A DNA stretch of 62,284 bases, counting the filler, from Hausera hauseri (Eukaryota): assembly GCA_046269625.1 (NCBI GenBank). It is 9 parts of 9 records of this genome, joined end to end, with 100 filler letters (N's around TTAATTAATTAA, not from the genome) between each part and the next. Parts side by side here need not be neighbours in the genome. Positions count along the whole stretch, not along the records: positions 7,794 to 12,412 come from JBJURY010501353.1; 8 more parts are not named here. One strand, 5' to 3'. The notes beneath the pieces are model-generated. The model was not told where the DNA came from and searched no databases. It saw nothing but the letters and a program-made list of their open reading frames with translations. Made by a program: the position numbers and the translations under genes. Positions 10,539 through 12,412 of the stretch are shown in pieces; positions within the stretch are counted from its first letter, which is position 1; the number at the start of each line of letters is the position of its first letter.

Positions 10539-10641
10539 CGTTGTTGTCGATGGTATCGGTTTTGCTTGCATTACAATTTGAACGAAACGTAAATGAAAGA
10601 TTCTGTAAACTGGGACAGAAAGATGAAAACCATGCATCCAT
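10486..10641 (-). CDS. Small conserved Polinton ORF (MDAWFSSFCPSL...)
   Basis: Homologue MSAWFSSFCPSL at 61254; TATAAACA 37 nt upstream; overlaps the integrase start. Confidence 0.45.
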   Translation of the reverse strand: MDAWFSSFCPSLQNLSFTFRSNCNASKTDTIDNNDGRRVVRSVSSRRVYWR

Positions 10642-10678
10642 ATCGCAAATCACCATATACTTACCGTCATTGTTTATA

Positions 10679-11001
10679 CTATGCTGCTGCAGTACCGATG
10701 AGACCACCCAGTAATGACGTGACAATCGGTAGAATTGCACCAAGGAATCCTTCGTCTTGCTGGTACACAACTTCGTTTCAGTCGTTTACTACGAGCGTTG
10801 GCAAGGCCAGTGTGTCGTTTTCGATACGTTAGTAAATTTTCCTTCCCACTACGAATGTCAATGTGACCCACAACAATAGTGTACAAAATTTCCATTAAAT
10901 CGTCTACTACAAACTACGGGAATGATTGTACCATGTTTCGTTTGACTCGCAGGCGTGTTGAGCAAAGCAATGAAGTACGGCTGACTACGTTTAAATCACA
11001 T
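10679..11001 (-). pseudogene. Small Polinton protein with C-terminal QxxGGFLxxILP amphipathic segment
   Basis: DDLMEILYTIVVGHI...YQQDEGFLGAILPIVTSLLGGLIG read across frameshifts; homologue at 60948-61215. Confidence 0.6.
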
Positions 11002-11213
11002 TTTTGGATGTATTGATATTGATGAGACTTAGTTGTTAATAACCGTTGCCATTGTGACGGTAATTTGCGTCTAGCTGCTGCTTTGGTTGTTGGACAAAAC
11101 ACAGAATTGATTAATCGCTTGACTGTAGCGGCGGTTCGTTTTGATACACGTTTCTTGGCGGACACCCGCTTGGTAGGTTTACGTTTAACAATCGTTTTTC
11201 AGGAATTTTTCAT
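10914..11213 (-). pseudogene. Small Lys/Arg-rich basic ORF, possible DNA-condensing core protein
   Basis: KRKPTKRVSAKKRVSKRTAATVKR...RRKLPSQWQR; homologue at 60748; TGA at codon 5. Confidence 0.4.
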
Positions 11214-11233
11214 TTTTATCATAATCATGTCGA

Positions 11234-11854
11234 TTATCGAATTTGCTTATAGACACATACCTATCTGATTGAAAATGTCTGTTCGTACACGCATGTCATC
11301 GGGACACTTGTGTAAAGTCGATGAACAGGTATCGGTGTGACTCGGTCATAGCATCATGATATTCATCTATCAAGTAGGCTCGGTTGTGAGGAAATGCTTG
11401 TCGTGCAACATAATGATAGTTTGATCACAACACCAAATAATGTACGCTTAGATTTCTTGTTCGATGCTGTCCGCCCTGATGGAACATGTTATGCGTAATG
11501 AAAATAACCATCATACTACGATGCCGTTCATTCTTCGTTAACAGGTTGTTGAAGTTGGTTTGTTTTGTTGCCTCTTGAAATAAATCGTCAGTGACAATAA
11601 CGTCACGGTTGCATAATCTCTCTGACCAGTTCTCATCAAACTCATCAATTACCGTTATCGATTTCAGTTTACAAAATTCCCAATGTGTCAAACCGGACTC
11701 ACCATCATCACCGACACTGATGCCAGTAAATGTGATTGAACAGCGGCGATTGGAATATGTCCCGGTAGTTCTGCAGCAATTTGCAAACAAAGTGCGTTGT
11801 GCCACATTCACTAGGGCCTACAATCTGGAAAATGGCACTATTCTGCAGCTTCAT
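11234..11854 (-). pseudogene. Polinton A32/FtsK-like packaging ATPase
   Basis: Degraded Walker A GPSECGTT, Walker B VIVTDDLF, RH...ITHNMFHQG; collinear with 60081-60740. Confidence 0.9.
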
Positions 11855-11939
11855 GTCGTTCATGATGATTTTCTCATACATTTTGTTTATAATCACGAAC
11901 GCATAAAAAGGTGCATCGTGAACACTGTTTCAATCAATC

Positions 11940-12412
11940 ATGATAGCCAATATGAACTACCGCGGACATGTTACTGAGTGTATTAATGCACTGCCGTTTC
12001 ATTTATGGAAGCCGAGGCAGTATATGCAGAAATATCGATTGGATATTACATGCTCATTTCCATCGGGAAAGTGTCGTATTATGGGTTGTCGCAAACCAAT
12101 CACAAATGATAGACATCTACCATTCGGTATTGTCATCGACCAAATTCAACCAATAACGGTAACGACTCAGATTGCTCACCACCACCAATTAATCTGAACA
12201 AATTAGCAATGGCTACCGAATGTATTTATGAGCCCGAACTGTTTCCTGCACTGCGACGAACTATTCCGCCCGCTTTGTGTCAATGTGTTTTGCAGTGGAA
12301 AAATTGTTGTATTGAGGATTCGGTCAATCAACTATGAGACGACTATTAATCAAATTAAACACCACATAAGTGTTTTACTGAATCAAAGTAATATACTCTG
12401 GCCAATGGACTA
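11940..12412 (+). pseudogene. Divergent TBP-like protein (Polinton-encoded), copy B
   Basis: FPSGKCRIMGC, INLNKLA, IYEPELFPAL and VNVFCSGKIVVL across frameshifts. Confidence 0.8.

Follow-up and report, generated by a model that had tools for sequence, protein, structure and literature searches.

TATAAAC(A/G), a candidate core promoter box of a Maverick/Polinton clade, and the compact TBP that may read it

The sequence TATAAAC(A/G) is, on balance, probably a core promoter of a clade of Maverick/Polinton elements, read by the element's own TBP and used by RNA polymerase II (Pol II). Motif, orientation, position and conservation, as well as the TBP fold and its residue pattern, are established by observation. 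Judged from sequence, promoter activity of the box is very likely and its recognition by the element's own TBP rather likely; late timing of box-driven transcription would be an even call.

The window, i.e., the whole stretch of DNA analysed (62,284 nucleotides, filler included, of Hausera hauseri, GCA_046269625.1), is made of nine contigs, among them contig B (7794-12412) and contig I (52960-62284), which carry Maverick/Polinton remnants that are dead in both copies (Table 1). The first-pass annotation had described the contig B region as a second, diverged copy, and this is borne out by its alignment to 59514-62284 (79.7% identity over 2858 columns, ~2.8 kb; 2285 of 2712 ungapped columns identical). 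Decayed genes for a TBP-like protein, an ATPase, a core protein and an rve integrase are common to both copies, and copy I additionally has a protein-primed polymerase, a dUTPase and a RING gene. Tblastn across the window with 16 proteins of the related elements L001 and L002 found element copies in contigs B and I and no others, and matched one retrotransposon integrase in contig F.

Elsewhere, the window holds host-type pieces (IFT172, CCDC22, amiloride-sensitive channel domain) and, in three contigs, LTR-retrotransposon-like sequence; the host, a eukaryote, would probably be an animal. Decayed LTR-retrotransposon pol genes are seen in contigs F and H and a zinc knuckle with related repeats in contig G (all within 35491-52859), and in contig E a reverse transcriptase ORF lies at 27393-29615. 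In contig B, just past the point at which the element is truncated, a ~610-nt unit is present in two diverged copies, 67-73% identical (8161-9161).

Table 1. Element genes and boxes in contigs B and I, with positions along the whole window
Feature	Position	Strand	Remarks
Putative minor capsid gene, 5' part	9310..9509	-	tblastn E 0.002 with L001 ORF 7017-8057; element truncated here
rve integrase with chromodomain, copy B	9510..10571	-	broken; start 10571 or 10538
7/8 box AATAAACA	9574..9581	-	integrase 3' end, before putative minor capsid gene; position as L001 box 6940
Small ORF, ~51 codons	10486..10641	-	open in both copies; overlaps integrase start
Box TATAAACA	10671-10678	-	directly follows stop of core gene; 37 nt before ATG 10641 of small ORF
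Core-protein gene	10679..11001	-	broken; E 0.001 with L001 core
Lys/Arg-rich small ORF	11030..11213	-	stop at codon 5 in both copies; end approximate
Box TATTAACA (7/8)	11034-11041	-	40 nt before core-protein ATG 11001
ATPase, A32-type packaging, copy B	11234..11854	-	frameshifted; E 4e-43 with L001 ATPase
Box TATAAGCA (7/8)	11244-11251	-	in last ATPase codons (Y-K-Q); 38 nt before ATG 11213
Box TATAAACA	11884-11891	-	37 nt before ATPase ATG 11854; identical in copy I
Degenerate box CATAAAAA (6/8)	11902-11909	+	38 nt before TBP-like ATG 11940; aligns to exact box 60003-60010, copy I
TBP-like gene, compact, copy B	11940..12412	+	frameshifted, reaches contig end; tblastn with L001 TBP E 1e-20
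Protein-primed family B polymerase, copy I	53346..56427	+	broken
TBP-like gene, compact, copy I	59520..59976	-	one in-frame stop; end approximate; E 2e-7 to solved TBP
Exact boxes, copy I divergent promoter	59988-59995(-), 60003-60010(-), 60026-60033(+)		within 59988..60033
ATPase, copy I	60081..60740	+	in-frame stops; E 2e-69, 52% identity to L001
Exact box, copy I	60708..60715	+	40 nt before ATG 60748
Exact box, copy I	60907..60914	+	41 nt before core ATG 60948
Exact box, copy I	61216..61223	+	38 nt before small-ORF ATG 61254
Integrase, copy I	61330..62284	+	broken; cut by window end

The class of the element is evident from its genes. Pieces of a PolB in copy I match PF03175 (E 3e-5, below the cut-off) and the PolB of L001 (5e-53); rve and chromo matches are present in B and rve in I, and the L001 integrase matches rve of Pfam (E 9e-17). 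The L001 ATPase matches Pox_A32 (E 8e-7) and is 47-52% identical to the ATPases of both window copies. An adenain-type protease (Peptidase_C5, E 1e-7) is encoded in L001 and was absent from the window fragments by tblastn with L001 proteins. Mavericks/Polintons have terminal inverted repeats and a target-site duplication; no long inverted repeats were found here, and all element copies are truncated.

Several gene labels are assumptions. The L001 ORFs of 419 and 346 aa, which from their size and position we take to be the major (double jelly-roll) and minor capsid genes, have no Pfam, NCBIfam or PHROG match, and the former has no PDB sequence match and a single-sequence fold with pLDDT 31. The 5' part of the minor capsid gene in copy B, presumed such from gene position, gave no usable match in an Atlas search. 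The core protein is presumably that, with its QxGGFL-type motif, and in L001 it has a weak Adeno_PX match (E 0.045).

The start of the TBP-like gene in copy B agrees with the starts of its homologs. ATG 10641 is not the integrase start but opens the ~51-codon ORF, which overlaps that start in another frame, and the integrase-frame ATGs are 10571 and 10538; L001 has a 52-aa ORF at the matching place, with no sequence match between the two. The in-frame stop of the Lys/Arg-rich ORF falls within 11199-11213 (-) and 60748-60762 (+), with the downstream frame conserved, and B-I differences by codon phase (3, 2, 2) do not settle its reading frame. Copy I also has RING-finger and dUTPase accessory genes (57221-57427 and 58325-58678, minus strand), to which L001 proteins give no match; no exact box stands in front of the dUTPase gene. 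Both elements also have, downstream of TBP and on its strand, a matching gene (57852-58160, minus strand, and L001:10485-10964; E 2e-8) with a putative exonuclease-like motif.

The five boxes and ATGs reported for copy B by the first-pass annotation are all present (distances are counted from the first base of the box). Its claim of an equal spacing in the two copies holds for four boxes (40, 41, 38 and 34 nt in copy I) and fails for the ATPase, where the distance is 55 nt in I vs 37 nt in B; the copy B ATPase box has ATGs at 28, 37 and 46 nt. The TBP/ATPase intergenic region differs in length as described (85 nt in B, 104 nt in I). The box in front of the ATPase gene is identical in B and I; of the five B boxes, two are exact, and that of the TBP-like gene matches at 6/8. 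Two of the five overlap the end of an upstream reading frame and are thus not free non-coding sequence.

Exact TATAAACA occurs six times in the shared part of copy I (0.36 expected; 0/300 shuffles), twice in copy B (0.25 expected; 3/300 shuffles) and five times in the seven other window contigs (3.0 expected; 11/60 shuffles). Counting ATG starts only, with the GTG row left out, a box precedes 5/7 starts of copy I vs 9/387 other ATGs. At 60002-60034 of copy I, the TBP and ATPase boxes stand back to back in a 16-nt inverted repeat, a predicted, very compact bidirectional promoter.

Paired B/I codons have dN/dS 0.37 (pS 0.274, pN 0.115). The copies therefore diverged partly under purifying selection, which makes a test of box conservation meaningful; together with the stops in both copies, this value indicates divergence partly while the element was active and partly after its death, with decay accounting for ~0.07-0.12 of dS 0.34, according to the active dN/dS assumed. 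Over the five boxes, B and I are identical at 36/40 sites. When conservation is compared with synonymous and non-coding sites, this lies above fourfold-degenerate sites (151/201; P=0.017, composition-matched too) and A/T fourfold sites (Fisher 0.034), is borderline against spacers without gaps (114/146; P=0.066; with gaps counted, P 0.001), and does not exceed all aligned sites (P=0.22-0.28). With the sixth copy I box added, 41/48 sites are identical (P=0.064). The four differing sites are all departures from the motif in B, and their number is about that predicted by decay alone.

The B-versus-I comparison is thus weak and suggestive, not decisive, as to selection on the boxes. Of the first-pass proposal that both the motif and its spacing were selected while the element was active, the first half is probably right and a fixed spacing was an overstatement, L001 having 46-98 nt at five of nine boxed starts. 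Strong support for selection on the motif comes from L001 and the ATPase homologs, rather than from the B/I pair.

Scanning of genome contigs with 26 TBP homologs gave 65 pattern matches, which yielded two loci, L001 and L002; both are eukaryotic virus-like contigs that were placed, probably by mis-binning, in genome bins of bacteria. Nearly complete and with its reading frames open, L001 sits on a contig cut inside the polymerase gene. Its TBP, integrase and ATPase have 39-52% protein identity to those of copy I, its gene order differs, and its DNA gives short matches only to the window (6 blastn hits). Exact TATAAAC is found 25-100 nt before 9/13 gene starts vs 11/495 other ATGs (P 2e-11), at distances of 36, 37, 38, 39, 46, 77, 78, 96 and 98 nt, and at 33-42 nt before 4/13 starts vs 0/495 other ATGs; the mode of the spacing is 36-41 nt. 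All 10 TATAAAC sites in L001 1-11100 are on the gene strand, and GTATAAACA occurs seven times in the first 11.1 kb vs 0.22 expected (0/300 shuffles).

In L001 the motif also stands at non-coding sites, ahead of non-homologous genes. Polymerase, integrase and TBP are without an exact box, the remaining, thirteenth gene is preceded at 42 nt by a box with 1 mismatch, and the box at 3658 has no assigned gene. For nine of the ten boxes, the assigned start is the first ATG to follow at a distance of 30 nt or more, leaders of 77-98 nt included, and ATGs 8-28 nt after a box are tolerated, being skipped; the starts of the core gene (5334) and the putative major capsid gene (8369) are the second of two in-frame ATGs and were picked with the box in view. 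This pattern is what would be expected of a TATA-like element with a transcription start ~30 nt downstream and scanning ribosomes. After the last gene, L001:11097-11776 has arrays of ~140-150-nt and ~60-nt repeats, possibly subterminal repeats.

L002 (3.3 kb) is Maverick-like and has a cellular-like TBP (Pfam E 6e-38) with all four Phe; canonical TATAAAAG is located 35 nt before its ATPase gene and 43 nt before its core gene. Its TBP (L002:2764-3351) is of a second Maverick kind, possibly a separate capture. The DNA compared comes from three elements with compact TBP, a pair of which are close copies, and from L002 as the single contrast, so the pairing of TBP and box is not a statistical correlation.

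The ATPase gene offers a proxy for the motif in a larger sample, since one box lies in its last codons in copies B, I and L001 and encodes the peptide YKQ. Among the best 120 of 1219 homologs (median pairwise identity 62%), a closing YKQ is found in 101, and 116 fit [YH]K[QHPRL], the other 15 of these having YK[RPHL] or HKQ; four have neither, and the third place in the 120 is never E, K or N. All 15 variant triplets are compatible with NATAAAC (codons unseen), five of them stand two residues later than the aligned column, and the flanks of the triplet are freely variable. The L002 ATPase has YVP instead of YKQ. For the Gln codon, 5/7 single-step changes keep the C anyway, which for 8/8 events gives an estimated P of about 0.07. 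The sole change in the copy B box within the last ATPase codons is synonymous, yet breaks the motif. With codons unseen and such changes favoured by mutation alone, YKQ is provisional evidence for the motif across the clade.

The window TBP-like gene matches solved TBPs (E 2e-7) and 199 cluster representatives. A TBP profile search gave 456 clusters at E<=1e-8, and the best 120 are all from metagenome-type sources; the Atlas taxon of the TBP cluster ('Archaea', with a phylum for 1 of 55 members) was left out of account. GenBank phages held no relative of the element TBP or ATPase, and a word-indexed homolog search for the first TBP piece among longer proteins gave 0/12 candidates. The protein is compact (~150 aa), with the TBP fold throughout and no extra domains. 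The AlphaFold model of homolog P0004 (pLDDT 96.9) is a two-lobed saddle (Foldseek E 7e-10; VIA Z 13.4, 145/148 residues aligned) and superposes on yeast TBP 66-239 with Z 13.2 over 145 residues (rmsd 2.7 to 1ytb). Helix H2 is missing from the model, which has no helix of at least four residues between strands 45-51 and 65-78, and the median linker is 23 residues in compact TBPs vs 33 in the L002 TBP. The basic patch on which TFIIA, TAF1, Brf and Mot1 rely is for the most part on H2 (PMC7221094, available part).

Three of the four intercalating Phe are kept: equivalents of F116, F190 and F207 are found in 67, 68 and 68 of 68 homologs, together with P191, and the loop equivalent to F99 is without an aromatic residue, by a mapping that in the N-terminal lobe, above all at F99, was made partly by eye. 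On the DNA face, as defined by the contacts of Table 1 in the accessible portion of PMC12529657, the 68 homologs have V122>R (67), T124>M (68), N159>S/T (68) and L205>N (68), and V71 is replaced by N in 54. The TFIIB-binding glutamate pair of the C-lobe stirrup is kept in 64/68 and 66/68. The N lobe of TBP contacts the 3' half of the box, which is where the element motif departs from the consensus. Viral TBPs generally lose the TFIIB-binding glutamates (PMC7221094, in the part available).

Host TBP/TFIID might read the box as an ordinary TATA variant, the element TBP acting otherwise (as a TFIIB decoy or in element-end binding); this is unlikely, though far from negligible. TATAAACA is one base off TATAWAWR, and changes at position 7 have weaker effects and are tolerated fairly well by host TBP, according to the accessible text of PMC10005294, so host TBP could read it; the structure of host TBP bound to a TATA variant, C(-25), has been solved (1qn3, available record), and the spacing of the box is that of normal Pol II promoters. 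Position 7 is nevertheless C in 7/7 TATAAACA of L001 and, within the shared part of copy I, in 6/6 8-mers that start with TATAAA; canonical TATAWAWR occurs 0 times there, and why a box read by the host should shun the stronger consensus is not evident. The DNA face of the element TBP is, moreover, invariant in a new way, and L002 combines a canonical TBP with canonical boxes.

That a large DNA virus infecting the same cell would supply the transcription machinery that reads the box, as in virophages, has very little probability. Virophages and their giant-virus hosts have promoter elements in common (PMC11464507, available part) and many giant viruses encode TBP folds, but the present element has its own TBP with host-TFIIB-type glutamates, plus an integrase and a polymerase, and no helper is known.

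That the boxes reflect no selection on DNA, and arise from common descent of close copies, protein constraint on YKQ and AT-rich sequence, is hardly credible and largely refuted by L001, with its motif enrichment (P 2e-11), strict strand bias and few short DNA matches to the window; such an origin would fit the box identity not exceeding the all-site rate, the synonymous change in the copy B box within the last ATPase codons, and the spacer before ATG 10641, which is 28/29 identical and so leaves no local contrast. A forkhead site (consensus RYAAAYA, matched by ATAAACA) or a polyadenylation/termination signal of the upstream gene (counted from the first base of a stop codon, two L001 boxes begin 4 nt after it and one 18 nt before it) is equally hard to credit and was rejected. 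The sites are strictly oriented, and L001 has GTAAACA, the best forkhead site, 0 times, with TATAAACG, off consensus, serving two starts. Four boxes sit 42-103 nt deep in the coding sequence upstream, where a 3' cut would sever the gene, and divergent gene pairs, which lack an upstream gene, have boxes too.

With TATAAAC(A/G) as a core promoter, the majority of genes in the packaging and structural block would be served by one box each, in many cases from within the tail of the upstream gene. Transcription would start ~30 nt downstream of the box and the first ATG past that point would be used, which would make 36-41 nt the shortest workable spacing and not a fixed one. The compact TBP of the element most likely binds the box and may recruit host TFIIB and Pol II via its intact acidic stirrup, and without H2 it could escape the host regulators that dock there. 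The outcome would be a transcription switch private to the element and probably late. Two exact boxes precede TBP in copy I, and in L001 neither TBP nor polymerase nor integrase has one, so an early/late split is not uniform.

In its widest form, the proposal is that a widespread and little-sampled Maverick clade has a stand-alone ~150-aa TBP re-tooled for TATAAAC, with H2 shed and the TFIIB hook kept, forming an orthogonal Pol II system independent of that of herpesviruses, and that L002-type Mavericks represent an earlier stage; the chances for and against it seem evenly divided. If true, this would be an independent replacement of host TBP by a DNA virus at the promoters of that virus, achieved more simply than in herpesviruses or poxviruses, and a natural change of TBP specificity. 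A defined box with a candidate reader makes Maverick transcription control testable with one small protein and one oligonucleotide. In practical use, the box flags true start codons and overlooked small ORFs in these elements.

A search of the literature, mainly of open-access main text, found nothing on Maverick/Polinton transcription control, on this TBP family or on a promoter motif of these elements. Mavericks/Polintons (adintoviruses, MELD viruses; Starrett et al., PMC8502044) have the same pPolB, rve integrase, A32-type ATPase and, as in L001, adenain-type protease. In the available text of that paper, the legend of Fig. 5 alone mentions a TBP-like gene, which may differ from the compact family; TBP is not discussed and 'promoter' occurs 0 times, and one supplement text file has 0 TBP terms.

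Cellular TBP and its TATAWAWR consensus (PMC10005294, available part) have in common with the element system the two-lobed fold, three of four Phe, the EPELFP stirrup and a matching promoter geometry. Compact TBP differs in being ~30 residues shorter, in having no H2 in the model and in its changed DNA contacts, and the element box has C at position 7. Giant-virus TBP-like proteins and poxvirus VITF-3 are, like compact TBP, TBP folds in dsDNA viruses with N-lobe regulator signatures lost; in contrast, their host-TFIIB signature is mostly lost and a viral TFIIB is often present (PMC7221094, part of the text). Among 13 L001 ORFs, no TFIIB-like or RNA polymerase gene was found with Pfam, the contig being cut inside the polymerase gene.

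A parallel in kind is the late, replication-dependent system of beta- and gammaherpesviruses (TATTWAA; ORF24/BcRF1/UL87), in which, as proposed here, a viral TBP fold is paired with a minimal, non-canonical box ~30 bp before the start. The herpesvirus TBP mimic also has a more polar DNA face, with changes at yeast V122, T124 and L205 as in compact TBP (PMC12529657 and PMC6541308, available parts). It differs in having extra Pol II- and DNA-binding domains and five partners, whereas compact TBP is a bare ~150-aa saddle with no evident partner complex; the box departs from TATA at position 4 in herpesviruses and at position 7 here, where TATT is not found; and the TFIIB-binding glutamates kept in compact TBP are lacking in ORF24 (PMC12529657, accessible portion). 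The underlying feature is probably a clade-wide promoter box, with a plausible reader encoded by the element, and the compact TBP and its box, known here from sequence alone, appear analogous to the herpesvirus pre-initiation system and not a member of it.
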